Assembly: GCA_019057865.1 (NCBI GenBank)
Contig: JAHLWP010000048.1
Coordinates: forward strand, 1 to 25,034
DNA from: Promethearchaeota archaeon
GTDB taxonomy: Archaea; Asgardarchaeota; Lokiarchaeia; Sigyniarchaeales; SOKP01
DNA: 25,034 nt
Direction of reading: 5' to 3'
Made by a program: the position numbers and the translations under genes. Positions within the stretch are counted from its first letter, which is position 1; each line of letters starts with the position of its first letter. A model generated the notes under the pieces. It was not told the origin of the DNA. It ran no database searches and was given only the letters and a program-made list of their open reading frames with translations. Shown here in pieces: positions 44 to 22,406 of this stretch.

Positions 44-1552
44 ATGAAACATAAGAAATTTTTAGCTTTTATTGCGATAATTGTAATAATTTCTATGATA
101 TCTATAGTTTCTTTGTATATAATAATAAATACTCCAGGTAATATCCCACCAGATAATATTCCACCAATTGTTAATATTACGAAACCGACTGAAGGGGAGA
201 GTCTTTCTGGAACTACTACAATTACTTTTACTGCAACTGATCAGCAAGGGTTTATAAAAGAAAGACAGATTTTAATTGATGGAGTAATTGTTCAAACTTC
301 CTCCTACTCCTATATCTGGGATACGATACAAGAAGTAGATGGCTCACATACTATTCTCTGTAAAGCCAAAGATAAAACTGTCTGGGGATATGATGAAGTC
401 ACTGTGACTGTTGATAATGGTGGAGAGCCAGATACTACACCACCAAATGTTACTATTACTTCTCCTATCGAAGGTTCAACTGTTTCGGGTACCGTAACAA
501 TTACTATGGACGCTACTGATGCTAATGGAATCAGTTCTTACGCAATCTTTATTGATGGTACATTTAAATCTGATACACAATCTTATTTTTGGGATACAAT
601 TCAAGAATTGAATGGTTCTCACACTATTCTTTGTGAAGCTACTGATCTTTCTGCTAATACAGGCTCTGATTTAATATCCATAACTGTAAATAATACGGGT
701 ATTGAGCCTGAATCTCCTGTAATTTTTAAATTGATGACATTCAATATAAATGAGAGTGGAGAAAATCCTGATTGGAAATCAGTAGTAAAAGAAGAGAATG
801 CAGATATAATTATGTTTATAGAAACTGGATATTGGGATGACAATAGCAATGAAAAGCTAAATCAATATGTAAATGAGTTTAACACCTATTTTGCTGATGA
901 AGATCCTTATATTGGATATTGTACTCAAGGAATAACATATGGTACTGATGGAGCGGCAATTATGAGCCGCTATCCTGTTATTGCCTCTAATCAAATAACC
1001 CATGTTCCACTCGATAATAATACTAGTTATGATGTTACTCATGATTTCTTTGATGTAAAAGTAAATGTAAGCGGGACATTGATGCATATTATTGGTTCCC
1101 ATTTAAAAGCATTTACTGGATCTCAAAATGAACAAATTAGAGAATGGGAACAAGAAGGTATTATCAATTATATGGATAATTTAGGAAATATACCTATAGT
1201 TTATTTGGGTGATTTGAACTCCTTCTCTCCTGAAGATTGGGGCCTTAATACTCTTCAGAGTGGGCTTGGCTATGGTCCTTTAAGTATGATGGTCCCCCCT
1301 TATAACAATCCTGAAACTGGTGGTGATTATAGTGCTTATTCATCTGCAATTCATAATTGGACCGATATTCATCGAACTTTGAATCCTACTGATTGGGGTG
1401 TAACTTATCCAAGTGAAGATTCCCGTATCGATTTTATTTATGTCAATCAATTTTTATTTTCCAATATTATCAACTCTACCACTGGAGATACTGCCCATGC
1501 AATTTCTGGATCAGATCATTTCTCTGTTGATGTTTTCATTAATCTTACCTGA
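44..1552 (+). CDS. Membrane-anchored/secreted endonuclease/exonuclease/phosphatase (EEP) with two bacterial Ig-like domains
   Basis: N-terminal basic+hydrophobic segment (KHKKFLAFIAIIVIISMISIVSLYIII). Two Ig-like repeats (PPxVxITxPxEG...WDTIQExxGSHTILCxAxD). EEP motifs MTFNI, DIIMFIE, SHL, GDLNS, RIDFIY, SDH. Many N-x-S/T sequons. Confidence 0.9.
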   Translation: MKHKKFLAFIAIIVIISMISIVSLYIIINTPGNIPPDNIPPIVNITKPTEGESLSGTTTITFTATDQQGFIKERQILIDGVIVQTSSYSYIWDTIQEVDGSHTILCKAKDKTVWGYDEVTVTVDNGGEPDTTPPNVTITSPIEGSTVSGTVTITMDATDANGISSYAIFIDGTFKSDTQSYFWDTIQELNGSHTILCEATDLSANTGSDLISITVNNTGIEPESPVIFKLMTFNINESGENPDWKSVVKEENADIIMFIETGYWDDNSNEKLNQYVNEFNTYFADEDPYIGYCTQGITYGTDGAAIMSRYPVIASNQITHVPLDNNTSYDVTHDFFDVKVNVSGTLMHIIGSHLKAFTGSQNEQIREWEQEGIINYMDNLGNIPIVYLGDLNSFSPEDWGLNTLQSGLGYGPLSMMVPPYNNPETGGDYSAYSSAIHNWTDIHRTLNPTDWGVTYPSEDSRIDFIYVNQFLFSNIINSTTGDTAHAISGSDHFSVDVFINLT

Positions 1553-1755: not shown

Positions 1756-2052
1756 ATGGTACAGGATAAAGAAGAAATTCTCAAAATGCTTAAAAAATTA
1801 AAAGCTGAAATTAAGAAAAATTATAAAGTGAAAAAAATTGGATTATTCGGGTCATATGTAAATAATAAGCAAAAAGAGACAAGTGATATCGATTTTTTAA
1901 TTGAATTTGAAGATGATGCTGATTTATTCCATTATATTGGGTTATCCCTCTTTTTAGAAGATCATTTTAATAGAAAGGTTGATGTGATATCAAAACCTAC
2001 ATTGAAAAAAGAATTAAGGGAACAAATTCTTCAAGAGGTAATATATGTCTAA
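1756..2052 (+). CDS. Minimal nucleotidyltransferase (MNT) antitoxin
   Basis: 98 aa with GLFGSY...SDIDFLIEF and C-terminal RKVDVI. Overlaps the start of a DUF86-like gene, the standard MNT-HEPN arrangement. Confidence 0.92.
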   Translation: MVQDKEEILKMLKKLKAEIKKNYKVKKIGLFGSYVNNKQKETSDIDFLIEFEDDADLFHYIGLSLFLEDHFNRKVDVISKPTLKKELREQILQEVIYV

Positions 2053-2410
2053 AAATTTTACAATTTACTTAAATGATATTAGAGAAGCAATAAATAGCAT
2101 AGAAATTTTTGTAGAAGGAATGACCTTTGAAGAATTTAAAAATGATGATAAAACTTCGAGTGCAGTTATTCGAAAATTTAGAAAAAATCTACATAAACTC
2201 ATTGAAGAAATTAATAATTACAATCAGATTTTTATAGAAAAGCGATTAAAAAATTATTCTTCCTTTTTAGATGGAAAAGATGATGGATTAAAGTATCCCT
2301 TAGATGAAGAACAAAGATTAGCCGTAATAAAAGATGATAAACATAACCTTGTAATTGCGGGAGCTGATTTCTTTAATATTTTATTTAATTTCTTATTCTT
2401 ATTATTATAA
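2045..2410 (+). pseudogene. Chimeric remnant: truncated HEPN/DUF86 toxin N-terminus fused in frame to a fragment of a UvrD/helicase IV-like protein
   Basis: aa 1-45 (YLNDIREAINSIEIFVEGMTFEEFKNDDKTSSAVIRKF) are typical of DUF86, but the EIIGEA and RxxxxH motifs are missing. aa 46-107 (PLDEEQRLAVIKDDKHNLVIAGA) match the SF1 helicase Q-motif and start of Walker A, broken before GSGKT. Confidence 0.8.
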
Positions 2411-2563: not shown

Positions 2564-3880
2564 CTAAAAATTTTTTTGATTATATCTTCTTACTTCTTTA
2601 TCAACAATTTTAGTTTTAATTTCGCTTGTTAACATTTCAAAGTTTTCATATTCTATCCTATCAAGACCTTGTAGATCAGCGGGAATCTTTTCTCCTCGCT
2701 TATGAATTATGTAAAATAGCTTTTTTGCGCCTCTAGCTAACCCTAATTCTAATGTTACATTTGGATTACTATTTGTTATATCATAAATCCCAAATTGCGT
2801 AGTAGATATCATATGTTCAATTTTATCTAATATATGAGTTCCATTTCCCATGAGCTCCAAATCTGCATAATAACCGTTTAATTCAGTCTCTTCAAATGCA
2901 TGCTGAATAGACTGGGTAAGTTCACTTTTATCGCCACGACTAAAATCATAGGCAACAAAAAAATGATATTTTTTCTTCTTAATTCTTTGACAATATTTCA
3001 CAACCTCTTGTGGATTAGTCACTGCTCCAGATTCATCAAACCCACATAAATCATTAATAATTGTGGATAAAATAGGAGTTTGATCAATAAATAGGGTCTT
3101 TAAGTTTACTAATTTTTCCAATCCTTTAATTTGAGTTATATTATTTCCTTTTAAGTTAAGGATCTCTAAATTTTTGAGATTTTCTAAAGATTTTATTTCC
3201 GAAATATAATTTTCTTCTAAATTTAATTCATTTAAAGTTATAAGAGATTCTAAACCTGCCATATCTTCTATACTGTTCTCATACAATTCTAAAACTTCTA
3301 ATCTCTTGAGATTTTTAAGACCTTTTATATCTTTAATATAATTCTCTCTTAAATTTAGAGTTTCTAAATTCATAAGAGAATCAAGTCCCTGAATTTTAGA
3401 TAATTGATTATAACTAAAATCTAAAACCCATAACTTATTTAAAGAATCAAGCCCTTTAATTTCAGATATCGAATTATTTGATAAATAAAATTCTTCTAAA
3501 TGCGTAAGATGATCCAGTCCTTTAATTTCAGTTATTTGATTACCATTTAAATTAAGAATTTCTAGAAATGTAAGATTTTCAAGCCCTTTAATCTCATTTA
3601 TTAGATTTTTCGCTAAGTTAAGTACTTCTAAATGTTCCAGTGTATTTAACCCGTTTATTTCTTTAATTTGGTTATCACTCAGGTCTAATTGTTCTAAATT
3701 AATGAGCTTTTTTAGACCTTTGATCTTGGAAATATTATTTCTACTTAAGTTCAAGACAGTTAGATCTGTAAGCTTAGTTAAGCCCTTAATTTTAGTTATA
3801 TCTTCTATATTTTTTGAACTTAAGTCTAATTCCCCTGATTTTAATTCATATTTAATTCCCTTATAAATTACATAAGTCAT
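2564..3880 (-). CDS. SDS22/internalin-type LRR protein with C-terminal nucleoside-deoxyribosyltransferase/TIR-like domain
   Basis: About 11 22-aa repeats LxxLxLxxNxIxxIxGLxxL. C-terminal FFVAYDF...QFGIYDITNSNPNVTLELGLARG...IPADLQG, where NPNVxxELGxA is the NDT-like catalytic motif. Confidence 0.85.
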   Translation of the reverse strand: MTYVIYKGIKYELKSGELDLSSKNIEDITKIKGLTKLTDLTVLNLSRNNISKIKGLKKLINLEQLDLSDNQIKEINGLNTLEHLEVLNLAKNLINEIKGLENLTFLEILNLNGNQITEIKGLDHLTHLEEFYLSNNSISEIKGLDSLNKLWVLDFSYNQLSKIQGLDSLMNLETLNLRENYIKDIKGLKNLKRLEVLELYENSIEDMAGLESLITLNELNLEENYISEIKSLENLKNLEILNLKGNNITQIKGLEKLVNLKTLFIDQTPILSTIINDLCGFDESGAVTNPQEVVKYCQRIKKKKYHFFVAYDFSRGDKSELTQSIQHAFEETELNGYYADLELMGNGTHILDKIEHMISTTQFGIYDITNSNPNVTLELGLARGAKKLFYIIHKRGEKIPADLQGLDRIEYENFEMLTSEIKTKIVDKEVRRYNQKNF

Positions 3881-3928: not shown

Positions 3929-6031
3929 TTATTCATTTTTCTCGGGATTAATTAATCTTAAAACCTCTTTGCCGAAAATTTCACTAAAAATGTCCTTCAT
4001 TTCGGGAGTTAAGTTATAAACACCTAATCTTTGATTAGTTTGGATTAATTCACTTCCTAACTCTTTTTCAACTTTCTTTATATATGTGAATATCTTCTGG
4101 TTTAGCCAATCAGATGGCCTATTTTTAAGGAAAAAAATTACTTTGAACCTGTTTCCGCAGATAAAATCGCCCATAACAAAACGTTTTTCATAACTTATCG
4201 ATAAGTTTTTCCCAGATTTAAATTCAGTTGCTATATCATCTAAAGCTTTAAAATATCCACCAAGAACATTGACATCAACATCTCCTATTGTTTGCATAAA
4301 TTCTTTATGAAAAATTACAGTACCACTTTCTGCATTTTGAATTAATATCAATTGGAGATTATCAATGTCAGGATCTTTTATATATGGGAGAGAGATAAAA
4401 TTGTTAATTTCTTTATCAGAATTTTTAATTATTTTATATAAATAATAAGGCTTTTTAATGTACTTCGCGTCTAGGATACTTTTCCAGAGTGGATCTTTAA
4501 TAAGTTCTGAAATAGCACCTTGAGAATCCTCTATCAAACATAATGGTACTCCAAATGCGATAGCAATGTAATATTCTAAAATATTTATATAATTACCATC
4601 AATTCCAATCATTTTTATTTCATTTAACTTAGCTGGAGAATTTAATATATCAAACCAATATTGAAAAATGATCGCTAAACATTCATCTAAAAGCACTGGT
4701 TTTTTGCGTACAATTTTTCCGATTATCTGTTTAAATTCAGTTCTTTGTGGTTCATATAAATAAGCTTTATAATTAGAGGTAAATGTATAAAAACCTAATA
4801 TTAATTTTTCTATATCATCGTTGTTGCAACCAGATATTAGGACTCCATCAAATTTGTTAAAAACATTGCTTAAATTCGTAATTAATTCGTTCAATTTGAG
4901 AGAACCATAGCTAGAAACACCACCTGCAGATATTACTATTGAATTTTCTAATTTAGGTAAAGTTACGTTAAGTTCTTCATTAATTAACTTATCTTTAATT
5001 TCTTTCCATTTATTAGTATTTTGGATCCCTAATTTTTTTAGAAAGAATCCTATACTTAATAAGAATAGAACTCTAACTTGTTTAAATCCAGGAATTTCCT
5101 CTTGAACTACTGTGGCTAATTCTAATGTTTTTAACGTAGTTTCTATAGTCCAAATATCTGGACTATCTCTTATTCCTAATAAAAAATAATAAAAACCTAA
5201 TTCAGTATTACCTAAAAACAAATGGAGGGTTCCTAAATCATAGAAAGCCCAAGGAATGTCTTCAGATTTTTTTATTTGCTCTTTTCTCTTTTGTATAGCT
5301 AGTTCTATATATTTCATATAACGTTTAATTGGCTTTATCTTTTTCTTAAGAGCAATTTCCAAAAGAATTACATTAACTAGCGGATAAGAGTAATCGCGAG
5401 CTAATTTCCATGCTTCTAAATAATAATTACAGGCTTTTTTATTGTCAATATATTTCCATCTTCCTCCTAAAATGGAATATGCATCAGAATCTTTTGGGTT
5501 TATTTGAATGGCATTTTCTAAGTAATCTAATCCCTCATTATATTCCAAAAAGGAATCAATAGATAATTTTGTTTTATAAAATCCTAGTTCTCTATATATT
5601 CGTGCTTTAATTTCTGACCTTGATTCTTTTTGGATATTTTCTTTTAAAACTCCTTCTAAAATTGCTACTGAATTTTTCCAATCCTCCATTCCTGAATATA
5701 TTTTAGCAATTTCAAGGGCTATTTCAATCTTTTCATTATTATTCTGAGATTTGGCATAGTTTGATCTTAAGGTATCGATTTCCTGATATTTCTGATAAGG
5801 ATCTCCATAGAGTGTGAAACCATATTCATATTCTTTAATTTTTCTAAAGATTTTATTCATTTGAACATTAAAAAGATTAAAACTTTCAAATAAATTATTC
5901 TTAATTTTTTCAAAAACTATAGATCTCTCTACTTTTTCAGTATCCTCGTAATATCTCTTTTTAAGTTCTTTTACTCTCTCTTCTAATAGTTTATTAAATT
6001 CCTCATAAGAACATAATTCTTTCTCATCCAT
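3929..6031 (-). CDS. TPR + degenerate SLOG + C-terminal longin-like domain protein (paralog of 6063-8072 lacking the synthetase domain)
   Basis: TPR motifs (IYRELGFY, DAYSILGGRWK, DIPWAFYDLG) are collinear with the neighbouring gene. SLOG-like region (SIVISAGG, GVLISG, IGIDGN..LEYYIA). The last ~140 aa (LILIQNAESGTVIF...GYFKALDDIATEF...RPSDWL...VEKELG) resemble Asgard longin-like domains. Confidence 0.7.
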   Translation of the reverse strand: MDEKELCSYEEFNKLLEERVKELKKRYYEDTEKVERSIVFEKIKNNLFESFNLFNVQMNKIFRKIKEYEYGFTLYGDPYQKYQEIDTLRSNYAKSQNNNEKIEIALEIAKIYSGMEDWKNSVAILEGVLKENIQKESRSEIKARIYRELGFYKTKLSIDSFLEYNEGLDYLENAIQINPKDSDAYSILGGRWKYIDNKKACNYYLEAWKLARDYSYPLVNVILLEIALKKKIKPIKRYMKYIELAIQKRKEQIKKSEDIPWAFYDLGTLHLFLGNTELGFYYFLLGIRDSPDIWTIETTLKTLELATVVQEEIPGFKQVRVLFLLSIGFFLKKLGIQNTNKWKEIKDKLINEELNVTLPKLENSIVISAGGVSSYGSLKLNELITNLSNVFNKFDGVLISGCNNDDIEKLILGFYTFTSNYKAYLYEPQRTEFKQIIGKIVRKKPVLLDECLAIIFQYWFDILNSPAKLNEIKMIGIDGNYINILEYYIAIAFGVPLCLIEDSQGAISELIKDPLWKSILDAKYIKKPYYLYKIIKNSDKEINNFISLPYIKDPDIDNLQLILIQNAESGTVIFHKEFMQTIGDVDVNVLGGYFKALDDIATEFKSGKNLSISYEKRFVMGDFICGNRFKVIFFLKNRPSDWLNQKIFTYIKKVEKELGSELIQTNQRLGVYNLTPEMKDIFSEIFGKEVLRLINPEKNE

Positions 6032-6062: not shown

Positions 6063-8072
6063 TTAATATTTTGTTATAAAAAATTCAATATCCTTTTCTG
6101 TGTTTTCTAATAATTTCAACCGGGGCTTTTTGCCAATTTGAAAATCTTTCCAATTGGGATCTTGAATTAAAAGATCTGCACTACGTCCACTTCCTTCTAA
6201 TATGCCTAATTTTGCATTAAAAATTAATGCTATATAATATTCTAACCTTGCGATGTTTCCTCCACCAATTCCTAAGACTTTAACAAATTTACTTTGAATA
6301 TTACTTCCCCAGATATCTAACCAATAAGAAACTGCTTCCTTAATAGTAAAACCTAATCCATCAGTGTGCCTAATTTCACAATAACGATTGTCAATCTTTT
6401 CACTATCAGGTATTTCCTTTGGCACGTATCCTATGCTTTTAATTTTTTCACTATATAATTCTTCAAGCTGACCTCCAAAAGCACTTACACCTGCTAAGGT
6501 TCCTCCAGAGATTAAAGTCCCTTCATATTTATTAAATCCACTAAGAACATTTTTTTGATATTTTTCAATTAATTCCTCATCCTCATTTCTGGTAGAGCCA
6601 ATTATTATAACAACAGGAGGTTCAATCTTACTATATGATGATTTATAATATGATTTTAATCTATTTATTGCAGGCTCATCATCATATTTAAATGCAAGAC
6701 TTAATAATAGTAGGTTTTGGATCAAATCTAATCCAGGGAATAAATCTTTGAAGTTAGAAAGCAAATTTAATGTTTTAAATGTAGTTGATATCATCCAATC
6801 ATGATTAGAATATCGTACACCAAGAAGATAATTAATAAAGCTGTTCTGGAAATTACCAAGAAATAAATTAAAAAGACCTATATTATAATATGCCCATGGA
6901 ATATCAATTTCCAATTCAATTTGAGTATTACACCTTTCAATAGCATCTAAAATGAAAGGTTTTGATATTGTGATTAGATCTAGATTCCTCAATTTCCTTA
7001 ACTCATAAATTAAGTAGTTACCTAAAGAATATGCGTCGTGCGGATTTATCGCGAATGCTTTTTCATAACAATCCCGAGCTTTATCCTCATCAAAATCTTT
7101 ATAATAGCCTCCTAAAATTGCCATCGCATCCCAATCTAATGGATCCAATTGAATGACTTTCTTTAAATAAGATTCTGCTTTTTGGTATTCTTGGCTATCT
7201 TTTTTGTAATAACGTCTTATGGCAAAACCTAATTCTCTAAGTATAGGTGCTTTATCTAAATGGGCATATTTAGATAGTAAATTCACGACTCTTGACCAAT
7301 CTCCTATGTTTCTAGCCAATAACGCCATCTTATAAACAGTATCCACATTCTCAGTGTCAGCCTCATGAATAATCTGAAGAACTTCGAGTTTTTTAGTGAT
7401 TTCTTTTTCACTCAGATATCCACCAAAATTGGTTTCATAATCTTTTATTATCATTTTTATTCGGGAAATAGATTCGTCAATTTGTTCTAGGAGTGCTGCA
7501 GATCTATGAAACTCTCTTTTCCACTGATCCTTTAACTTATACGCTCCTTTATATCCTAAATCATGATATATGGAAGCATATGCATGTTCATTTATTGTAC
7601 GGACTTGAATCTCTGCTTTCTGCGACAAATAAGATTTAGGGATGTTCAAATCCTTATATAATGGAGAAGTTTCTTTTAAAGTAATTGAATAGGAATCAGT
7701 TCGATATCCAAACTCTGATACTGCTAAACTATCAACTTTATTCTTGCCTATGCTAGGATCAATTATAAAATTTTCTTTAATTAGCATAGATGCTCTTTTT
7801 ACGTCATCTATAGTTGGTAAAATAAGCCGTATTCCACATATATCTGTCATTTCTGTTATGGGATCTTTATAGTGTGGCTGACGTAGGATTTTTTCTGCAA
7901 AACTTGTTAACGATTTTACTCTAGTTTGTATTATATATTCTGTTGCGATTTGTTTGCCTATTCTATGCAGAATTTTTTTCAGGATTTTGTTGAATTTAAT
8001 GAATTGTGAATATCTTTCTTTATATAAATTTAGTTGTTCTTTAATTAGCAATTTTCTCTCTTCTTTCATCAC
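6063..8072 (-). CDS. RelA/SpoT-type alarmone synthetase domain + TPR + SLOG fusion
   Basis: Synthetase motifs RVKSLTSFAEK, DICGIR, FGYR, EIQVRT, HAYASIYHDLGYK. Central TPRs (ILRELGF, DAMAILGGYYKD, IPWAYYNIG). SLOG motifs VVIIIGST, LISGGTLAGVSAFGG, VLGIGGGNIARLEY. No HD hydrolase, TGS or ACT domain. Confidence 0.85.
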   Translation of the reverse strand: MMKEERKLLIKEQLNLYKERYSQFIKFNKILKKILHRIGKQIATEYIIQTRVKSLTSFAEKILRQPHYKDPITEMTDICGIRLILPTIDDVKRASMLIKENFIIDPSIGKNKVDSLAVSEFGYRTDSYSITLKETSPLYKDLNIPKSYLSQKAEIQVRTINEHAYASIYHDLGYKGAYKLKDQWKREFHRSAALLEQIDESISRIKMIIKDYETNFGGYLSEKEITKKLEVLQIIHEADTENVDTVYKMALLARNIGDWSRVVNLLSKYAHLDKAPILRELGFAIRRYYKKDSQEYQKAESYLKKVIQLDPLDWDAMAILGGYYKDFDEDKARDCYEKAFAINPHDAYSLGNYLIYELRKLRNLDLITISKPFILDAIERCNTQIELEIDIPWAYYNIGLFNLFLGNFQNSFINYLLGVRYSNHDWMISTTFKTLNLLSNFKDLFPGLDLIQNLLLLSLAFKYDDEPAINRLKSYYKSSYSKIEPPVVIIIGSTRNEDEELIEKYQKNVLSGFNKYEGTLISGGTLAGVSAFGGQLEELYSEKIKSIGYVPKEIPDSEKIDNRYCEIRHTDGLGFTIKEAVSYWLDIWGSNIQSKFVKVLGIGGGNIARLEYYIALIFNAKLGILEGSGRSADLLIQDPNWKDFQIGKKPRLKLLENTEKDIEFFITKY

Positions 8073-8104: not shown

Positions 8105-11100
8105 TTATTCTCTAGATAATTCTTGTAATATCCTTTCTGTTTTATGAACAAAACGCCTGTATTTTTTTGGATCTATTTTCTCTAATTCTTTATTTAATTC
8201 AAGAACTTCATTAAATATAGTTTTTGATAGATTTAATCTGCCAATCTTTCTGTATAAGTAACCTAAATTACTCTTGATTATTGCTTTAAATTTTAACTGG
8301 ATTTTAGATTTAATATTTATTAATTTATCATTATTATTTAATGCTTTTAGATACATTTTTTCAGCTTTATCATAGATTCCTAAATCCTCAAATGATAATC
8401 CTACATAATTTTCAATCTTCATGAGTTCTTCTCTATATAAATAAGAATTTGATACTGAGGGAAAATCAATTAAATCTACTGAAATCATGGGGGTTATCTT
8501 AACCATCTCTAATTTATCAAAATTCTGATAAAAGAGCCTTATATCGTCAAAAATATCGTTAATATATTTTAGTTGCTTTCCTGGGTTATCTTCTTCTAGA
8601 TCTAATATATAGTCTAAAGCTAATGCGAAATTTCTTTTGGTACTCATGAACTTTTTAAATTCTGATTGTATTAATGCTCTTTCATGATGAAGACAAGCAA
8701 GATACTTTGAACATTTCTTGTATATCTTTGCCTGTTTAAAAACCTCAATTGCGTTATGATTACTGATCAAAGCTTCATTTTTTAAATTGAATTTAAAATA
8801 AAGGTGTGAGAGAACTAAATGTACCTTAGCTAAAGATATTAAGTAAAATTCAGGATTAAAATCTGCCAATTCTTCATAATCTTTTTTGCTTTTAAATAAA
8901 GCTTCTTCTGCTTCATTAAATTTGTCTAATTTATTGTAAAGACTTCCTAATTCTTTTTTAACTTTAGCTAAACGAGGAAAAAATATTTTAGGATTGATTT
9001 CTGCTATTCTTTGGTATATTTTTAAATCTAATAATTTTGCTCTAATTGCTTTATCATAGTGGTTTAGATCCATATAGAATTTACCAAGTTGATCTGTATA
9101 TATCTCAACATAGTGTAGAAAAATCTCTGGATATCTAAAAGCTAACCTTTTTCTGACTTTTTTTGCTGTTAAAAAACAAATCTCTGCGTCTTTTAATTTA
9201 TTTTGATTCAAATATATTTTAGCTAGATCATTATAAGTGGTATCTACATAATACAAAAATAATTCTGGATTCTTTTTTGAAAGTTTTAAGTTAATCTTCA
9301 ATGCTTCTTTATATGCATTTTCAGCTTCGAAAGGCTTATTTAAGCCACGGTAGAAATTACCTAATCGATTTTGTATATCCGCGACATTGTTTTCAAATAA
9401 ATCAGGATAGTATAAGGCTAGTTTTTGGGCTTTACTTAATGCTTTTAAAAAAGATTCTTCTGCTTCTTCAAATTTTTTTGATTTAGAATATAATGTTCCT
9501 AAATTACGATGAGACCAAAAGATACTTTTATCTATTTTGAAGGGCTTGCTTTTGCTAAGTAATTTCTTTATTTTTAATGATTCTTTGAATAATCTTTCGG
9601 ATTCATCGAAATCTTTCAAATTTATAAAAAGAAGGGCAAGTTGGTCCCATGTCCAAGCTTTGTAATATAAATAATATTCTGGATTTTTAATTGATAGATC
9701 TTCATAAATCTTTAATGCTTTTAAATGCATTTCCTTAGCAAATTCATATTTTTTCAGTTTTTTATAAATTGCGCCTAAGTTATTTTGTATCCACGCTAAA
9801 TCAGATAAATAAGTCTCAGGATCTCTCTCTGCTAATTTTTCTCTAATTTTTAAAGCTTTTAAAAACTCTTTTTGAGCTTTCTTCTTCATTTGTATCTGAT
9901 TGAATAATAATCCAAGATTTCCCCGCGTCCATGCTAAATCTGCTAGATAATCATTACGATCCGTCAATGTTAGTTCTTTTCTTATCTCTAAAGCTCGTTT
10001 AAATGAATTTTCTGACATTTTATAGCTTTTTTTTGCTTTATATAAAAGTCCTAAATTACCATAAGTCCATGCTAAATGTGGTAGGAATATATTGGGTTCT
10101 TTTTTAACTAAATTTAATTTGGCACTCAAAGCTAAATTATGAAAATCTTCCGCCTTATCATATCTTCTTAATTTCATACACAAGGTTCCCAATTTGTCAT
10201 GTACGTCAGCAATGTTATCTTGGTACAAATTAGGACTTAATTCTTCTAAATTAAGATAAATTTTTAATGCTTCATTGTAGGAATCCTCTGCCTTAGAGTA
10301 TCTTCGCGTAGTATAATAAAAAATTCCAAGCTGATAATATATTTTAGCTTTTAATTCACCTTCAAAAAATTCTTTTAATTTCTTTCCAAGCGTAACCAAC
10401 TTATTTAAGCTATATTGCTTTAATAATTCTGGGTTCTCGATACTTAAAAAATTTAATGCTAAATCTTCAGTAGTCTCCAATAATGAATTATGGTACATTA
10501 ATTCTGTAAAATCTTCCGGATTTTCACCGTATATTTCTTTCTTTTTGTTATAGTAATTCACAGCTAGCTGATGACTAATGGTGTCTACATCAAGTCCTAA
10601 TGACTCTTTTATATGATCATATATGAATTCATATGCCTCCTCTTGAATATCTTTCTTCTTTAAAAACCCAGCATTTATCAACTTTTTAAAGCTTGATTCA
10701 AAATCATTATCTTGATAAAGAGTTTCAATAACTCTTTTGTTAATATTATTTTCAATATCTGAATTTATAATTGACAAATTCTTTAATAGCTCGTACTCTT
10801 CATCAGAGAGAATTTCCATAACAATTCTGTTTAAATATTCCTCAGTTTTTTCAGAATCAACATTCAATATAATATTTGGATCAAAGATCTCCATTTTATC
10901 AACATTAATATGGTCATAGTTTCTCACAATTAACTCCATTGAAATAGGATGTCCTTCTGTTATATTACTTATCTTTTCTTTGTTCGAATCACTTATATTT
11001 TTATGAAAACGTTCGCTTAACATTTCGATATAATCAATTCTATCAACTTCATCTAATCCCTTGAGATGATGAATTCTTCGGGTATTACCAATCGACTTTC

Positions 11101-12097
11101 GCGAAGAGCAAATAACAAAATCTAAATATTTCACTAAATTTCTCACATCTGAATCAGCAAGATGAAAATCATCAATGAGCAAATGAACTTCTCTTTTTTC
11201 AATTAATTCTGAAATTTTTTTAAACTTAATTTCTTTAACTTCTTGTTTAAGCTCGTTGGTATCAGGAATATATCTTGATAATGCATCAATCACATCATCC
11301 AATATTATCTCATTTCTAAAAACTCTATGATATACATCCCGACATTTATTTTTAAAGATTTTATATCCTGAGCCTGTGATGTAAAATTGTCTAGGGCCTA
11401 AAGCAATTATTTGTTTTCCTCTTAATTTCTGCAATAATAATATCACCTGAATTAGAGAAGTTTTTCCAATACCCCCAACACCATAAACCTCAATACTCTC
11501 ATCTAAATTGTTCATTAAATATGCAATTGATGATCTTCTATTGTAAAAATCTTCCAGTTTCAACTGTCCTTTTGAGTACCATTCAACAATATTATTTACT
11601 AAATGATCAGTAATTGTATTTACGATTCCAGTATCTTCAATATTTTGTATTTTAAAATAATTCTCTTTACCAACTTCTTCAAGAAATTGTTTCACTTTAT
11701 CTTCGATATTTATTTCATTCGATATTGTTGAAGTAGTTTTGACCTTAGAGTACTCAGGAATAAAGTAAGATTGATGTAATATCCCTTCTGCTTCAGTTAC
11801 TTTATATTCGCAGTGGGTATAGGATATTGGTTCATTTTTTATCTTCAGTGGACAATTTTCTGCTTTGCAATCTTCAATATTACACTCGTTCAATAAAGTA
11901 CCATAAAAAGGAGTTATTAAAAAAATTACGATATCACTTTTCCTAATCTCCCTTATACTCACATCTTGCGAGTAATTGCCATTTGGAATAAAATTTTCCA
12001 TCCCCACTCCATCAATGCTTTCATTTAAAGCATCAAGTATCAATTCCCTAAAATTTTCTAGATCTTTTGAAGTGGAACTTAAAAAAACTCTAAGCAT
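8105..12097 (-). CDS. NLR-like STAND NTPase: DUF4062 (TIR-like) - NB/AAA - TPR array
   Basis: N-terminal RVFLSSTSKDL...SDIVIFLITPFYG...SYTHCEY (DUF4062). Walker A GVGGIGKT, Walker B LLIDDFH, GHP motif and a wHTH-like region. About 15 TPR units of ~46 aa (LAxxxxNLGxLY...ALxI). Confidence 0.9.
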   Translation of the reverse strand: MLRVFLSSTSKDLENFRELILDALNESIDGVGMENFIPNGNYSQDVSIREIRKSDIVIFLITPFYGTLLNECNIEDCKAENCPLKIKNEPISYTHCEYKVTEAEGILHQSYFIPEYSKVKTTSTISNEINIEDKVKQFLEEVGKENYFKIQNIEDTGIVNTITDHLVNNIVEWYSKGQLKLEDFYNRRSSIAYLMNNLDESIEVYGVGGIGKTSLIQVILLLQKLRGKQIIALGPRQFYITGSGYKIFKNKCRDVYHRVFRNEIILDDVIDALSRYIPDTNELKQEVKEIKFKKISELIEKREVHLLIDDFHLADSDVRNLVKYLDFVICSSRKSIGNTRRIHHLKGLDEVDRIDYIEMLSERFHKNISDSNKEKISNITEGHPISMELIVRNYDHINVDKMEIFDPNIILNVDSEKTEEYLNRIVMEILSDEEYELLKNLSIINSDIENNINKRVIETLYQDNDFESSFKKLINAGFLKKKDIQEEAYEFIYDHIKESLGLDVDTISHQLAVNYYNKKKEIYGENPEDFTELMYHNSLLETTEDLALNFLSIENPELLKQYSLNKLVTLGKKLKEFFEGELKAKIYYQLGIFYYTTRRYSKAEDSYNEALKIYLNLEELSPNLYQDNIADVHDKLGTLCMKLRRYDKAEDFHNLALSAKLNLVKKEPNIFLPHLAWTYGNLGLLYKAKKSYKMSENSFKRALEIRKELTLTDRNDYLADLAWTRGNLGLLFNQIQMKKKAQKEFLKALKIREKLAERDPETYLSDLAWIQNNLGAIYKKLKKYEFAKEMHLKALKIYEDLSIKNPEYYLYYKAWTWDQLALLFINLKDFDESERLFKESLKIKKLLSKSKPFKIDKSIFWSHRNLGTLYSKSKKFEEAEESFLKALSKAQKLALYYPDLFENNVADIQNRLGNFYRGLNKPFEAENAYKEALKINLKLSKKNPELFLYYVDTTYNDLAKIYLNQNKLKDAEICFLTAKKVRKRLAFRYPEIFLHYVEIYTDQLGKFYMDLNHYDKAIRAKLLDLKIYQRIAEINPKIFFPRLAKVKKELGSLYNKLDKFNEAEEALFKSKKDYEELADFNPEFYLISLAKVHLVLSHLYFKFNLKNEALISNHNAIEVFKQAKIYKKCSKYLACLHHERALIQSEFKKFMSTKRNFALALDYILDLEEDNPGKQLKYINDIFDDIRLFYQNFDKLEMVKITPMISVDLIDFPSVSNSYLYREELMKIENYVGLSFEDLGIYDKAEKMYLKALNNNDKLINIKSKIQLKFKAIIKSNLGYLYRKIGRLNLSKTIFNEVLELNKELEKIDPKKYRRFVHKTERILQELSRE

Positions 12098-12322: not shown

Positions 12323-13656
12323 TTATTCATGTAAAACAATTTCTCTCCAATTTGGCTCAATATCACTTAAAATAAAATCCAGGATCTCTTCGGCAACAGG
12401 TTTTATGAGATCCTCCCCTGTTAAAGAAACATCAATCAAAAAATCAATAGTAGTATATCCAATATTGATCAACTCAAAGCGTATTTGTTCGTGTTTTCTT
12501 TCAGAATCATACATATCTTCTGGAGAAACAAATCTTAATTGATAGTAATCATGAATTAGATCATTAATTCTAGTAATTAATTTATCATCCCTCTCTCCGA
12601 ATTCAAATTCGAACTTAGGTAATTCAACATCAATATTATCATGAATTGATTTCAACCTTTCTATTATAAATCGTGTTTTTAAATCTGGATCGTGATCTAA
12701 TAGATTTTCTGCTAAATCAATCTCACCAGCATCTATTTCCAAAAAGGAGAAGGGAAGAGTACTTAAATTATTATCTGATAAAAACAAATATTGAAATTCC
12801 ATACGACCAAATGATTCTGGGAGACTTGAAATTATATTATGGCTTAAATCTAAAATTCCAAGATAATTTAAATCTACAATAGAATCAGGCAAAAATTCTA
12901 TTTTATTATTTGATAAACTTAAAAAATCAAGATGTTTTAACTCATCAATCCATCCTGGAAGTGATTCTAGATTAACGTTATCTAAAATCAATGCATTTAA
13001 GTTCTCAATTTTCCTTAAAGATTCAGGTATTCGTTCTATATTACAATTACATATTCCAATTCCGTCAATTGCATTATTTTCATTTATTAATAAAGCAAGT
13101 TTTTCAAAATCATAATTAATTCTTCAAAAGATTCCAAATAAATGAAGAATTCACCAGTTATAGATTCAATTTCTTCAAGAACTTCAACTTCTTGTTTTGG
13201 CAAGTACACACCCCTAAAAAATCTGCGTTCAACTTTAGGTTTAGGTGGAGTTTCACTTTGAATCAATTCTAAAATTAGTTTAATATGGTCTAGTAGTTTA
13301 TTTAAATGATTTTCTAAAGAAGCACCAATCGCGTTATACCACTGTATATCACCAAGATAATATTCGAACTTTCCACTCGGCTCGACATCTTCAATTCTAA
13401 ATGGGATGATATTAATCTCATTCTTTCCTCCTATAGTCAACTCCCTTCCTACATGTTTTGATAAATTAGCTTGTTTTGAGAAAACAAGTAAAATTAGATT
13501 GGAATTTTTAATTGCATTTACAATTGAATTTTCCCATTGACTTCCAGGTGTAGCATCACGATGATCGATCCAACACTTAATATCATGCGTCTCTAAATAA
13601 TCGCAGAGTGTATTAGCTATTGAATCATCTTTACTTGAATGGCTTATAAAAATCAT
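12323..13656 (-). pseudogene. Frameshifted TIR-LRR-CTD gene (ORFs 13087-13656 and 12323-12991 are one gene), paralog of 20846-22180
   Basis: Changing frame near 13114-13121 gives NYDFEKLALLINENNAIDGIGICNCNIERIPESLRKIENLNALILDNVNL, which runs without a stop into ORF 12323-12991. It is collinear with the paralog's NNEFKNLGLLLSEENTVEGIGILDCNLEEMPESMRNIDNLNVLILDNTNL. Confidence 0.9.
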
Positions 13657-13791
13657 ATCATATAATAATGGATTTTAATTATGATTAAGTAGATATTATT
13701 TTTAAGGATTTCCTGTATTAGAAAAGCTCACAAAAGTATATTAAAATTGTTTTCTCATTTTTAAATATCAAAAGGAAATCAAAAAAATAAA

Positions 13792-14016
13792 GTGACTAAA
13801 ATCGAAAACCAATTTGTAATTGTTAATGGAGAGAAAATCTTCGTAGATAAGGAAGGATATCTTGATTTAACAAGGGAAAAAATTACTGATATGGATGAAA
13901 TTATCGGACTTGAAAATATTGAGGGTTTAAAAGTACAATTTAAATCTCGAATTGTAAATTTTGAGGATTTTATGATTAAATTGATTAAAATAATAAAAAA
14001 TGAAAGGTATCGATAG
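13792..14016 (+). pseudogene. Truncated LRR gene stub (N-cap and first repeat only)
   Basis: FVIVNGEKIFVDKEGYLDLTREKITDMDEIIGLENIEGLKV resembles the N-terminus of 2564-3880 (YVIYKGIKYELKSGELDLSSKNIEDITKIKGLTKLTDLTV). The LRR pattern then stops. Confidence 0.65.
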
Positions 14017-14034
14017 TCAAATAAATAATTGACT

Positions 14035-15486
14035 TTAGATCGAATTTTTTAATAAATCAAGTATTAATTGGTTAAAATATCTATTAGGATTTGTTTTTTC
14101 ATTAATCATTGGTTCAGAAGGTTTATAAAAGGATAATATCTTAAAAACAAGTCCGGAGCTTAAAATAATATTCCCAACTGTTTCTAATCCATGAGAATCA
14201 CTTCCAATTGTAAAAATTGGTTTTTTATCTGAGATGTTATATTTTGCATATTCTTTTACCATATTAAAAAAGAGTTCAATAACCTCTTCTAAGGAGTTTT
14301 TGGCATAATGGTTATAATTTGTATATTTTAAGTTGAAAATTTCGATTCCTTTTAGCCCTTTTTCTAATAATTCTGTAATATTTTCTTTTGTTTCATAATT
14401 GTAATAACCTACATGTGCTAATATGCTTATTCCAGAATGTTTATCTGCCCATTTAATAACCTCTTCAACAGGGACATTTCCCCAGAATTTCTTATCGTGG
14501 ATCCTATCTGTTGCTTTATTAAGAAGTTCATTTGTATATAAATCAAATCCTTTTAGCGCCCATCTTTGAAAATTGTCCAATTCAGGAAAATATACCAATA
14601 TATCTCTTCTATCATCAATCCAATCATTAGATTTTTTTATTCCGGTTGCCACTTCTATTCCCGGGATTACATCAATATTGAATATTGTACCAATCTTTAT
14701 TGCTTTACAAACACCATCAAAATTGTTGTGATCAGTAAGAGAAATTGTTTTTAGTCCAATTTCCTTAGCTTTACATAAAATTTCTCCTACAGATTGACTA
14801 CTACAATCAGAATAATGTGAATGAATGTGTAGGTCCATTAGAATCTGAGATTCACAAATATTTTTTGAATGCTTTTTAGGTATACTTGAAGTTACTAACA
14901 ATTTCTTTAGGCAATCCAATGCGATATCCACTAAGAAAGTTAAGATCTTGTCAAATAATTCATCAGAATAAAGTTTGATATCCTTAATAACTTCAAGATC
15001 GATTTTTTTTGAAGATTTATTTAAAACTCGGTCCTTAAATTCATATATTTCGAGGAATATATTCAGTCTTCTTAAATTCCTTATTATATTTGAAATTTTA
15101 TTTGAGTTATTTACTTTTTCCATGCAATAATTTATATACTTTAAATAATCGTTTTGGATAATATAATCTATAAGATCTTCTTTTCTAATCCTCCTTGCTT
15201 TATGCTTTATCTCCAAAAGACCATCAATGCCATATCCTTTTTGATGAATCTCTTTTCCATTAGAAAAATCAGGGTATTTTCCTTCAATTTTATGATTAAA
15301 TGGCTTAATTTTACGATTAAAACCCCAAAGCATTTCTTTAATCTGTTCTGAGGTCGTTAAAGTGTCACACCAATTTTTAAAAATAAGAAAAATTCTCTTT
15401 AATAGATTTTTTAGTGGTTTTTTTTGACTTTTTAAGATTTCATTAACCCTATCAGTTATATCTTCGCTATAATAATTGATCGACAT
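14035..15486 (-). CDS. PHP-family phosphoesterase with unknown ~215-aa N-terminal region
   Basis: DLHIHSHYSD, SLTDHN, IPGIEV, ILAH, GIE and GSDSH metal-binding motifs (TrpH/YciV-like). Confidence 0.88.
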   Translation of the reverse strand: MSINYYSEDITDRVNEILKSQKKPLKNLLKRIFLIFKNWCDTLTTSEQIKEMLWGFNRKIKPFNHKIEGKYPDFSNGKEIHQKGYGIDGLLEIKHKARRIRKEDLIDYIIQNDYLKYINYCMEKVNNSNKISNIIRNLRRLNIFLEIYEFKDRVLNKSSKKIDLEVIKDIKLYSDELFDKILTFLVDIALDCLKKLLVTSSIPKKHSKNICESQILMDLHIHSHYSDCSSQSVGEILCKAKEIGLKTISLTDHNNFDGVCKAIKIGTIFNIDVIPGIEVATGIKKSNDWIDDRRDILVYFPELDNFQRWALKGFDLYTNELLNKATDRIHDKKFWGNVPVEEVIKWADKHSGISILAHVGYYNYETKENITELLEKGLKGIEIFNLKYTNYNHYAKNSLEEVIELFFNMVKEYAKYNISDKKPIFTIGSDSHGLETVGNIILSSGLVFKILSFYKPSEPMINEKTNPNRYFNQLILDLLKNSI

Positions 15487-15565
15487 TTCATGCTCTTAAC
15501 ATATATTTTAAATCAAGAATATCTTAATAAAATCTTATTACATAAGAACAATTGCAAATATGTAT

Positions 15566-15580
15566 AAAAAACTTTAAATA
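15566..15580 (+). promoter_or_regulatory. Archaeal-type BRE/TATA candidate for 15630 gene
   Basis: AAAAAAC-TTTAAATA about 50 nt upstream of the ATG, with GTGAGG (SD-like) at 15611-15616. The AT-rich background lowers specificity. Confidence 0.4.
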
Positions 15581-15629
15581 TTGACTTTTTAATTTAAAGA
15601 GAATTTTTAAGTGAGGAAATCATTTAATA

Positions 15630-17402
15630 ATGGCTTATATCTTTATAAGTTATTCTATTGCAGATTCAAACAAGTTTCAAATATCTAAAATTGCTGAAGA
15701 TTTGACTAAGTTTCCGGAAATTGAAAATACACTTTACTGCGAAGAAGACGCCAGAGAAGATTTTATTAAATATATGAATGAATACATAGAAAAATCTGAT
15801 ATTATGCTCCTTTTTTGTTCTCAAAACTCTAAAAATTCCAAATTTGTAAGTTTGGAATGGAGAGTCGCATTGAGTTTAGAAAAGAAGATTATTCCTGTTT
15901 TCATAAATCCGAAACATGTTCCGCCTTTATTATCTTCGATGATAGGAGCTGAATTCAATGAATTTGATTATAATTCTACATTAAAAAGTATTTACCATTT
16001 AATTTTAAAAAATTTAACCAAATCAGAGGATGAGCTCAAAATTCAAGCTCAAATTCTAACTAAACCTAAGGCAGCTTTTAGGGGAAAACTAGTAAATAAA
16101 AAAGAAATTGAGAATCTAAAGAGAATGCAGTGTGAATTAAATAATTTAATTGAAAAATTTGAAGTAAATGCAGATGGATCAGTAATTTCATTAGATCTCT
16201 CGTCAATTTATTTACAAAAGATTCCTAAATCCATTTTATTTTTTCCAAATTTAATATATATTAATTTTTCTGAAGATTCTTTTGAGAATGATAAAGGTAT
16301 TCGTAGACTGGTATATAATGGCGTAATAGTAAAAATTGAAGGGAAACCTTATGAAGATGGTCAAGTAGAAGCAAGAAAAAAAAGAAGAGAGGAATTAGAA
16401 AAAATTGGTAAAGAAAATCAAGATATAGTTAATCAAGCTCAAAGTTTTATTACGTCGGGAGACTGGGACACAGCTATAAAACTCTTAAAGCGATCAAGAG
16501 AAATATGTGTGCATCAAGGATGGTCTTCAGGTGTAGACTACGCATATAAAATGATTTTAGAATCTGAGAAATATAAAAAAGAAGAAACTGAAAAGAAAGT
16601 GAAAAGAAGAGAAAAGATGTTAATCACATTAAAAAAAATTCCATTAGAAGAAGAAACAGCACTATTTGAATTAGAGAAATTATTAAAAAGAAAATTTAAT
16701 TTGTTCATAGAACCCCAACTGAATAAAAGTATGACTTTCACTATAGAAAATAATAATATTATAGCATTAGATCTCTATAAATGTAAATTAAACAATTTCC
16801 CCGAAGAAATTTTTATGTTTACTAAGCTCAAGTATTTAAATTTAAAACGTAATCAAATTGTTAAACTTCCTAAGTTAATTGGTCTATTTAAATCCCTTAA
16901 GTTATTACGTTTGTCAAATAATATGTTAAATTGTATCCCTAAATCAATATCAAAATTAAAAGCCCTTAAAACTCTAGATTTAAGTAATAATAAACTGAAA
17001 ACTCTCCCAGAATCCTTATCTGAATTGAGATCCCTTGAATATCTCGATTTGAATAACAATGAATTTTCTGATTTTCCTAATTCTATACTTTACATTTCAA
17101 CACTTAAAACTTTATATTTAAATTTTAATAATATTTACACAATTCCAGAGTCTATAGGAAATCTGTCTTCATTAGAAACCTTATACTTAAACTTTAATAA
17201 CATTAGATCAATTCCCGAGTCAATAGGCAAATTAAAATTTCTACAATATCTTAATTTACGTGATAATTATTTATCAGATTTACCCTCTTCCTTAACAGAA
17301 CTAAATTCTATCCAGACATTAGTACTAAGTGGGAATAACTTTAAAACCATCCCCTGGCAGGGGACTTTTTTAGAACGTAGAAACGTAGAAATCATCATAT
17401 AA
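15630..17402 (+). CDS. TIR + short capped LRR + helical/TPR-like linker + LRR array
   Basis: IFISYS...DIMLLFCSQNSKNSKFVSLEW...KIIPVF (TIR). GDWDTAIKLLKRSREIC helical hairpin. About 9 23-aa LRRs (LxxLxLxxNxLxxLPxSIxxL). Confidence 0.9.
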   Translation: MAYIFISYSIADSNKFQISKIAEDLTKFPEIENTLYCEEDAREDFIKYMNEYIEKSDIMLLFCSQNSKNSKFVSLEWRVALSLEKKIIPVFINPKHVPPLLSSMIGAEFNEFDYNSTLKSIYHLILKNLTKSEDELKIQAQILTKPKAAFRGKLVNKKEIENLKRMQCELNNLIEKFEVNADGSVISLDLSSIYLQKIPKSILFFPNLIYINFSEDSFENDKGIRRLVYNGVIVKIEGKPYEDGQVEARKKRREELEKIGKENQDIVNQAQSFITSGDWDTAIKLLKRSREICVHQGWSSGVDYAYKMILESEKYKKEETEKKVKRREKMLITLKKIPLEEETALFELEKLLKRKFNLFIEPQLNKSMTFTIENNNIIALDLYKCKLNNFPEEIFMFTKLKYLNLKRNQIVKLPKLIGLFKSLKLLRLSNNMLNCIPKSISKLKALKTLDLSNNKLKTLPESLSELRSLEYLDLNNNEFSDFPNSILYISTLKTLYLNFNNIYTIPESIGNLSSLETLYLNFNNIRSIPESIGKLKFLQYLNLRDNYLSDLPSSLTELNSIQTLVLSGNNFKTIPWQGTFLERRNVEIII

Positions 17403-17524
17403 ACTCGGTAGCTCTCTTAAATCTTATAAATTTAAACTGCCAAAATTAAATATGTAATTTGGGCTATCTTTTTAGAATATTGTTATTGATAAATTTAATA
17501 TTATAGAATAACTAAATCCATCAC

Positions 17525-19288: not shown

Positions 19289-19364
19289 ATGTAATTTTTA
19301 CGATATTGTATTTTAGATAAAAGAGAATTAAGTGGCTTTTAAAAAATTATTCACATTTTTTAAT

Positions 19365-19388
19365 TGTGGTTAATTGGAATTATTTATG
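19365..19388 (+). repeat. Left half of the 2480-2517 element
   Basis: TGTGGTTAATTGGAATTATTTATG, 23/24 identical to 2480-2503. Ends 2 nt before the stop codon of 19391-20746. Confidence 0.7.
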
Positions 19389-19390
19389 GT

Positions 19391-20746: not shown

Positions 20747-20845
20747 TTATAATACAAGAAAAATTATGTTCTGTCCTTACTAAAAATTAAGGTTTTCTCT
20801 ATTAAAAATATTTAATATACTATTGTATATAAGATAGACATTTTT

Positions 20846-22180: not shown

Positions 22181-22406
22181 GAATAAACAATAAAAGGTTT
22201 CTAATTAAGAATACGATGCTATTTTTTTTAAGGATCGTTACGATTTTTCTACAAATTTATCAGAATCATCCTTATAATATTAATTTAATGAGAAATGAAT
22301 TACTCAAGGTTTTAACTATTTCATTTAAATAAAAAACTTTCAATAATATTAATAGTAAATATTGAATATTATTTTATTTTAAATTATAGATAAAACCAAA
22401 TATTTT

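Follow-up and report, generated by a model that had tools for sequence, protein, structure and literature searches.

The gene described here encodes a RelA/SpoT-type enzyme fused to putative sensor modules and belongs to a Promethearchaeota archaeon (Lokiarchaeia; Sigyniarchaeales). It was studied within a window of 25,034 nucleotides (nt), which corresponds to positions 1 to 25,034 of contig JAHLWP010000048.1 in assembly GCA_019057865.1. The gene occupies positions 6063–8072 on the (-) strand and is stop-free, with 669 amino acids (aa) counted from a GTG codon. This GTG (8070–8072) directly precedes an ATG (8067–8069) and homologs begin with MK, so the ATG is the likelier start and the product would have 668 aa. 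The gene forms part of a block of four head-to-tail genes on the (-) strand, with gaps of 31–48 nt. These encode a DUF4062-STAND-TPR protein, the RelA/SpoT-TPR-S-SLOG protein, a paralog and a leucine-rich repeat (LRR)/TIR-like protein.

The 6063–8072 protein consists of three parts. The RelA/SpoT-type synthetase domain covers residues 1–220 (7413–8072, (-), Pfam core 7545–7925), with the RelA_SpoT (PF04607) match at residues 50–176 (E 2.5e-14, 54 bits against a cut-off of 27). An all-helical TPR region follows at residues 226–475 (6648–7397, (-)), defined by Pfam and by the helices of the AlphaFold2 model. Several homologs have precomputed TPR-S hits, and the TPR region of the 6063–8072 protein also has a weak Pfam match to MAP3K_TRAF_bd (E 3.9e-4). 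Residues 476–669 (6066–6647, (-)) form a SLOG domain of the LSDAT type, recognised by Pfam, a domain model and a motif census. The match to LSDAT_prok (PF18171, ‘SLOG in TRPM, prokaryote’) lies at residues 486–638, with 28.5 bits against a cut-off of 25.4, and is the sole match to this family in the genome. The Gly-rich loops of the SLOG domain are intact (SGGTLAG and GIGGGNIARLE), and the motif census found the patterns SGGTxxG and GxxGGxIxxxE conserved across the family. The hallmarks of the long RelA/SpoT homologs (RSH), namely an N-terminal HD hydrolase or pseudo-hydrolase and a C-terminal TGS/ACT portion, are absent from the protein by Pfam.

The AlphaFold2 model of the whole protein has a pLDDT of 89.7 and a pTM of 0.84. 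It is poorly defined only at residues 110–121, right before the Gly-Tyr of the G-loop. The N-terminal part of the model was matched by Foldseek to RelQ and RelP with TM scores of 0.68–0.74 (RelQ 0.72–0.74). A separate model of residues 476–669 reached a pLDDT of 95.1, and its best folds are the MHR1/2 regions of TRPM2, TRPM4, TRPM7 and TRPM8, the Moco carrier protein (MCP) and LOG enzymes (E ~1e-6 to 1e-5). By their titles, the TRPM entries matched include ADP-ribose (ADPR)-bound TRPM2 and ATP-bound TRPM4 structures. The RelA/SpoT-TPR-SLOG architecture is real. An earlier reading made from the DNA letters (the sequence-only reading) had proposed this fusion, and the Pfam matches and models bear it out.

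The synthetase domain was placed among RSH enzymes by a profile of 18 family domains searched against PDB sequences, a rough placement that relies on E-values instead of a phylogeny of named RSH enzymes. The best matches were RelQ (E 5e-25) and RelP (E 4e-22), followed by CapRel SJ46 (E 2e-12), RelA (E 5e-5), Rel(Seq) (E 1.6e-4) and FaRel2 (E 8e-3); Tas1 gave no match. The sole NCBIfam match, to YjbM, was below threshold, and PADLOC matched 6063–8072 only once, through the synthetase domain, to PDC-S33, a candidate family. Two members of ~370 aa (P0028 and P0029) were considered as CapRel-like and rejected, with E 6e-4 to CapRel versus 1e-16 to RelQ.

The gene upstream of 6063–8072 in the operon encodes a 1330-aa protein with DUF4062, STAND NTPase and TPR parts by Pfam (8105–12097, (-)). 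Its stop codon is 32 nt from the GTG and 35 nt from the ATG of the RelA/SpoT gene. The paralog (3929–6031, (-), 700 aa) carries a TPR-S region, a degenerate SLOG domain and an extra C-terminal domain, and has no synthetase domain. It aligns by BLASTP to residues 201–667 of the 6063–8072 protein with 29% identity over ~500 aa (E 6e-47). Several family-conserved glycines are gone from its SLOG domain, which reads SGCNNDD and GIDGN; because of this loss, the paralog may serve as a partner or regulator that does not bind. Its C-terminal ~150 residues (548–700) have no Pfam match. The last gene of the block (2564–3880, (-), 438 aa) encodes LRRs and a CAP12/PCTIR-type TIR-like C-terminal domain, the latter at 24.6 bits against a cut-off of 24.7. 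Beyond the operon, an array of six genes with TIR_2 domains by Pfam, mostly TIR plus LRR, spans 13087–24890 on both strands. The genome contains seven TIR_2 matches, so that all but one fall within the window.

The same kind of neighbourhood recurs around related genes. Among the nearest Asgard relatives, two loci (L004 and L005) again have the synthetase-sensor gene together with the paralog and the gene for the 438-aa LRR protein, and another (L001) has the pairing with DUF4062-STAND-TPR. Four 669-aa Asgard orthologs (L117–L120) have a TPR-TIR_2 gene (~720–840 aa) 49–63 nt upstream on the same strand in every case, and L120 has three in tandem. This is the position held by the DUF4062-STAND-TPR gene in the window. 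A further Asgard subfamily of ~856 aa has TIR_2 genes within one or two genes in 7 of 8 loci. TIR linkage was found at 14 of the 15 related Asgard loci examined, in addition to the TIR genes of the window. It extends to a distant homolog (P0015) on a contig with bacterial-type housekeeping neighbours, where a TIR-TPR gene lies 4 nt downstream.

The ~856-aa subfamily (L121–L127, e.g. L121:7515–10088) retains TPR-S and SLOG. Its G-loop is degenerate (SLGHFQTY or FLDHAQTY, without Gly-Tyr) and HDxxYK is lost. The C-terminal domain of the paralog type is fused at the C-terminus in 7 of 8 loci of this subfamily (E 1e-15 to 1e-27); the eighth ORF (open reading frame) has only 616 aa. Because of this fusion, the tandem pair of the window may be a four-domain protein that has been split and sub-functionalised.

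In type I Thoeris, the SLOG domain of ThsA senses the product of the TIR protein. In type VIII Thoeris, the effector ThsI carries an Aravind-type TPR, responds to cyclic ADPR, and its TPR has been proposed as the sensor (10.64898/2025.12.03.692087). It has also been reported that toxic small alarmone synthetases (toxSAS) serve as immune or toxin effectors (PMC11782079, 10.1101/2021.04.30.441581). The arrangement typical of Thoeris, in which a TIR protein is encoded with an effector bearing a sensing domain, was found at 4 of 4 orthologous loci, and six TIR_2 genes lie in the window. Because an enzyme is combined with two modules of a nucleotide-sensing type, and TIR linkage is tight and repeated, a Thoeris-like cascade is the best supported account. 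The 6063–8072 gene is, on balance, probably the effector of a Thoeris-like, TIR-linked immune module, acting as a RelA/SpoT pyrophosphokinase that a ligand would gate. The analysis shows the domain anatomy, complete catalytic motifs, purifying selection, the SLOG fold and recurring TIR and NUDIX neighbours, whereas ligand, gating, acceptor and immune phenotype are inferences.

The cascade would begin with neighbouring TPR-TIR or LRR-TIR sensors, which would detect an invader and make a nucleotide derived from NAD+/ADPR. In the 6063–8072 operon, the DUF4062-STAND-TPR protein would take the place of the TIR protein. The nucleotide would bind the SLOG (LSDAT) domain at the C-terminus, the TPR-S scaffold or both, and this binding would free the N-terminal RelA/SpoT domain. 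The freed domain would then move pyrophosphate from ATP to the 3′-OH of an adenosine or guanosine acceptor. The candidate acceptors are ATP/ADP, yielding (pp)pApp, GTP/GDP, yielding (p)ppGpp, or tRNA-CCA; the sequence alone does not choose among them. Growth arrest is the predicted outcome.

Several observations weigh against this account. The gene directly upstream of 6063–8072 encodes the DUF4062-STAND-TPR protein and not a TIR_2 protein. DUF4062 is presumably TIR-like, and its N-terminal domain has no sequence relative in the PDB. The TPR-S (PF20308) match at residues 258–355 scores 26.2 bits, slightly under the cut-off of 27.6. The synthetase domain is nearest by sequence to the non-toxic, housekeeping RelQ and RelP and not to known toxSAS. 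The Pfam scan revealed no antitoxin-like gene in the operon, no search aimed at pZFD or Tis1 having been made. Nor was there any Pfam match to HD_4 or NUDIX in the 18 window ORFs of at least 98 aa, three short nested antisense ORFs being unscanned. The sequence-only reading had likewise seen no hydrolase domain or small alarmone hydrolase (SAH) gene in the window, which holds for the window and would be false for the genome. The genome (4.26 Mb, 99.7% complete) has one RelA_SpoT match, the 6063–8072 gene itself, and a single HD_4 match. The latter is a stand-alone 176-aa SAH/Mesh1-like ORF with an intact HD...ED motif on another contig (C71, L007:1465–1995(+)). Of 151 genomes of the class, 29 have RelA_SpoT and 43 have HD_4, but only 5 have the two together. 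The SAH-like gene is therefore not a dedicated partner, being neither linked nor co-inherited.

These data also bear on the idea of a housekeeping, metabolite-regulated alarmone synthetase, resembling an archaeal stringent-response enzyme and lying in a defence island by chance. The best sequence matches are indeed housekeeping small alarmone synthetases, and the genome does encode a SAH-like hydrolase at a separate site. However, that hydrolase is not co-inherited, and the synthetase gene is patchy: the 29 genomes of the class that carry it all belong to one family, and it occurs in just 17 of the 49 further genomes from the genus. Such a patchy distribution is typical of defence genes. As the gene is moreover always fused to sensor modules and TIR-linked at nearly all of the related Asgard loci, a housekeeping role is very improbable.

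The family extends far beyond the Asgard archaea. A search with a 10-sequence alignment recovered relatives at 341 loci in species-representative genomes. The bacterial phyla include Gemmatimonadota, Chloroflexota, Bacteroidota, Planctomycetota, Verrucomicrobiota, Actinomycetota and Proteobacteria, and the archaea include Bathyarchaeia, Thermoplasmata, Methanomicrobia and Hodarchaeota. Neighbours were counted at the best 80 of the 341 loci (L037–L116). The commonest is an adjacent same-strand NUDIX hydrolase of 130–160 aa, at 29 loci, or 29 of 76 by one count. Adjacent same-strand RyR-domain proteins occur at 18 loci, 12 of them TrkA_N-RyR (~600 aa), and adjacent same-strand TIR_2 proteins at ~10. 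Within +/-8 kb, custom hidden Markov models detected TIR ORFs at at least 26 loci and NUDIX ORFs at 39. Many of the bacterial and archaeal relatives themselves carry a RyR domain. A few family members have HD_4 fused after the synthetase domain (P0027, 933 aa; G083:C475, a 1106-aa ORF), the reverse of the order in long RSH.

By sequence, the NUDIX partner has only generic matches to MutT and ADPR pyrophosphatase. Together with the occasional fused HD_4, it would fit either the clearance of a soluble 3′-pyrophosphorylated product or the quenching of an ADPR-type input. An alternative to a terminal effector is a second-messenger generator. In that case the activated synthetase would make an alarmone-type nucleotide that other proteins read or that reprograms the host without itself being toxic. 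The nearness of the domain to the (p)ppGpp-making RelQ and RelP, the HD_4 fusions, a NUDIX neighbour at half of the surveyed bacterial and archaeal loci, which fits turnover of a soluble product, and a SAH-like gene in the same genome all point this way. However, no dedicated nucleotide reader is evident in the operon, where the only other SLOG domain, that of the paralog, is without the conserved Gly loops. NUDIX could just as well quench an ADPR-type input, and SAH accompanies RelA_SpoT in 5 of 29 RelA_SpoT-positive genomes, versus HD_4 in 43 of 151 overall. A second-messenger role is therefore considered unlikely, if the strongest of the alternatives.

The Thoeris-like account may be extended from the single operon to the family. 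There may well exist, with a probability just short of even, an undescribed Thoeris-type pathway in Asgard archaea and many bacterial phyla. In this pathway, TIR or TIR-like sensors would produce an ADPR-derived nucleotide that activates a TPR-S/SLOG-gated RelA/SpoT pyrophosphokinase. The output would be alarmone synthesis, ATP depletion or tRNA inactivation, and in most bacterial versions the NUDIX hydrolase would determine the threshold or remove the product.

The synthetase domain itself is unusual in its G-loop. Translation of the DNA gives the motifs RVKSLTSFAEK, DICGIR, FGYRTDSY, EIQVRT, HAYA and HDLGYK. The ATP-donor and catalytic motifs RxKxxxSxxxK, DxxGxR, EIQxRT and HxxxYK are thus all present. 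Among 170 alignable relatives, R51, K53, K61, D77 and E154 never vary and S57, R82 and Q156 hardly do; the 6063–8072 protein has every one of them. The base-stacking Tyr of the G-loop (Tyr308 in Rel(Seq), Y128 in FaRel2) is present as Y123 and is kept in 165 of the 170. The His expected four residues past this Tyr (GYxSxH) is not there. In the G-loop FGYRTDSY (7689–7712, (-)) the family alignment places Ser127, codon TCC at 7692–7694, in the canonical His column. A pairwise HMMER alignment to RelQ instead shows a 2-residue insertion at this site, and His is absent under both alignments. The second departure is HAYA in place of the usual HAWA (7575–7586, (-); Tyr165). On re-reading of the DNA, the sequence-only reading proved exact on all of these points, both the intact RxKxxxS, DxxGxR, EIQxRT and HDxxYK and the altered FGYRTDSY and HAYA.

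In Rel(Seq), His312, the equivalent of the missing residue, hydrogen-bonds the beta-phosphate of the acceptor GDP (PMC9143738, PMC13299517). Tyr308 stacks on the acceptor base, which is read by Lys304, Asn306 and the backbone of Ala335 (PMC9143738, PMC13299517). As the His contacts the acceptor phosphate and not the base, its loss removes one phosphate contact and is not readable as a change of acceptor class. The replacement by Ser would be a tolerated or fine-tuning substitution at this contact.

The evolution of this position was followed in the wider family. Among 1.84 billion cluster representatives, phmmer matched residues 1–230 to 5059 at E <= 1e-3, of which 105 reached E <= 1e-30. A set of 176 sequences was collected, of which 162 share the TPR-S-SLOG C-terminal part and 170 have the alignable synthetase domains referred to above. 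The His column holds His in 162 of the 170, Thr in 5 and Ser in 3. All five Thr cases come from a subfamily with a wholly degenerate G-loop. The Ser carriers are the 6063–8072 gene, P0005 (93% identity) and P0007 (83%). The next relatives, P0006, P0008, P0009 and P0010 (67–82% identity), have His within GYRTDHY or GYRSDHY. In a maximum-likelihood tree of the synthetase domain, made from family members only, the three Ser sequences form one clade (support 100/99) nested among His-bearing sequences. A search of 150 other genomes of the class recovered 21 ORFs from the 28 other RelA_SpoT-positive genomes, none with the Ser variant; the 669-aa orthologs in these genomes read FGYLSHHY. The Tyr of HAYA is present in 14 of the 170 relatives, including every member of the close Asgard clade (P0005–P0010).

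The change from His to Ser involves two nucleotide changes (CAT to TCC or TCT) and is seen in three assemblies. Two Ser lineages differ synonymously at the Ser127 codon, TCC versus TCT. The ratio of nonsynonymous to synonymous substitution rates (dN/dS) of the synthetase domain is 0.11–0.14, with 0.14 between two Ser-bearing sequences at a synonymous divergence (dS) of 0.46. The domain is under purifying selection. Because two nucleotide changes are involved, three assemblies agree and dN/dS is 0.14, the Ser127 change is real and maintained and is neither decay nor a sequencing error. The sequence-only reading had named decay or error confined to one genome as grounds for dismissing the substitution; decay and error are contradicted by these data. 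The loss of the His arose recently and is confined to three close relatives; it is neither a family trait nor the mark of a separate enzyme class. Conservation of the loss in orthologs, which the same reading had put forward as a check, was not found, and this outcome goes against the altered acceptor that it had inferred.

It would also be possible to regard Ser127 as the sign of a weakened or dead domain, a pseudo-enzyme that only binds nucleotide after the loss of His. One substrate-contact residue is gone, and the degenerate G-loops and absent HDxxYK of the ~856-aa Asgard subfamily show that domain decay does occur in the family. However, the donor-site residues, the catalytic residues and the stacking Tyr are all intact, and purifying selection is seen between the two Ser-bearing sequences compared. 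Loss of activity is thus hardly probable.

Somewhat less remote, though still improbable, is an altered acceptor. Here the loss of the G-loop His, together with T125, D126 and Y165, would retarget the enzyme from GDP/GTP to an acceptor with fewer 5′ phosphates or to tRNA-CCA, and set it apart from its His-bearing orthologs. The contact of this His with the acceptor beta-phosphate in Rel(Seq) (PMC9143738) is in favour, as is the smaller positive patch at the acceptor site of the tRNA-modifying FaRel2 (PMC11782079). Tyr165 adjoins the Ala whose backbone reads the base in Rel(Seq), aligned by motif (PMC13299517). Furthermore, the Ser required two substitutions and was retained over a dS of ~0.46 while its codon varied. 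On the other hand, Ser is restricted to that one shallow clade within His-bearing sisters, and nothing else in the site has changed, the base-stacking Tyr included. According to Kurata et al., tRNA-using toxSAS have no clear sequence signature (10.1101/2021.04.30.441581), which leaves tRNA use without a recognisable mark. The operon context of 6063–8072 is common to the His-bearing sister P0006, and in part to the Ser-bearing P0007; the presence of a His-bearing protein with the same operon partners argues against a functional switch. The sequence-only reading had offered either an altered acceptor or tight autoinhibition. The former is disfavoured by the His of the sisters, the shared operon and the nature of the phosphate contact, while control by a fused sensor fits both the anatomy of the protein and its gene context.

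The gene also appears as a mosaic. Against P0006 (6063–8072 versus L004:227–2233), the synthetase domain has a dS of 1.6 and the TPR-S and SLOG parts only ~0.2. Against P0007 (L001:10001–12004), all three parts have a dS of ~0.4–0.46. This pattern points to lineages having recombined close to the domain boundary.

Compared with known systems, the locus resembles Thoeris types I (ThsB TIR plus ThsA SIR2-SLOG) and VIII (TIR plus ThsI CMP-hydrolase-TPR) in having TIR genes beside an enzyme fused to SLOG and/or an Aravind-type TPR. In some loci there are also several TIR genes next to one effector, as in Thoeris. It differs in that the effector is a RelA/SpoT pyrophosphokinase instead of a SIR2, Macro-TM, SLATT or hydrolase protein. 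Its SLOG is of the LSDAT/TRPM type, a DUF4062-STAND-TPR gene lies directly upstream, and the host is an Asgard archaeon. RelQ and RelP provide the best sequence and fold matches and have the motifs RxKxxxSxxxK, DxxGxR, GY, EIQxRT and HxxYK in common with the 6063–8072 protein. They are, however, ~210-aa stand-alone homotetramers making (p)ppGpp, whereas the 6063–8072 domain is fused to ~450 aa of sensor modules, is without the G-loop His and lies in an archaeal immune island.

By analogy with the toxSAS (CapRel SJ46, FaRel2, FaRel, Tas1, PhRel), the RelA/SpoT domain would be a growth-arresting effector that is off until triggered, and CapRel, too, is one chain that ends in a regulatory or sensor part. 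Unlike toxSAS, to which it is distant in sequence, the protein would be regulated by TPR-S and SLOG and not by a pseudo-Zn-finger or separate antitoxin, and its predicted trigger is a small nucleotide and not a phage protein. The SLOG fold is shared with TRPM2 (MHR1/2 SLOG plus NUDT9-H NUDIX), and the commonest neighbour of the family echoes this pairing of SLOG with NUDIX. In contrast to TRPM2, the proteins are soluble, their output is predicted to be enzymatic and not an ion channel, and the window has no NUDIX gene.

The domain families themselves are already known and curated in Pfam. They reportedly stem from comparative genomics by the Aravind group, with LSDAT and the TPR-S scaffold defined in Burroughs et al. 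2015 and in Burroughs & Aravind 2020. The new element would be a toxSAS-like output of TIR-to-sensor-to-effector signalling. The literature searched contained no experimental study of a RelA/SpoT enzyme fused to SLOG or TPR-S. The examined portions of the text and supplements of a 2025 systematic TIR survey (29 effector types) contain no RelA/SpoT, ppGpp or pyrophosphokinase term. In Kaur et al. 2020, RelA domains are mentioned solely as rare generators of nucleotides within vWA-MoxR systems.

If correct, the Thoeris-like account would connect two well-studied fields that have stood apart. One is immune signalling by TIR/NAD+-derived molecules, as in Thoeris, plant TIRs and SLOG sensing of the TRPM2 type; the other is the alarmone or toxSAS chemistry of RelA/SpoT enzymes. 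TIR signalling would gain a new effector class, and RelA/SpoT enzymes a role in archaea, which are not generally known to have a (p)ppGpp stringent response. The idea is directly testable, as the family members are soluble single chains of ~670–860 aa at 341 loci. The missing His matters little, being a shallow lineage-specific substitution, but as a naturally occurring variant it could help to probe what the phosphate contact does.

Some further features of the island were recorded. A MNT-HEPN toxin-antitoxin module flanks the operon (1756–2410(+)), with NTP_transf_2 and HepT-like HEPN genes whose ends overlap. A protein with Big_7 and endonuclease/exonuclease/phosphatase domains (44–1552(+)) and a PHP-domain protein (14035–15486(-)) are located at the margins of the TIR-rich island and within it. 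In several of the linked TIR proteins, a weak PCI-domain match stands just N-terminal of the C-terminal TIR_2 domain (L123:6079–8580, L125:10341–12401 and 22407–24890 of the window).

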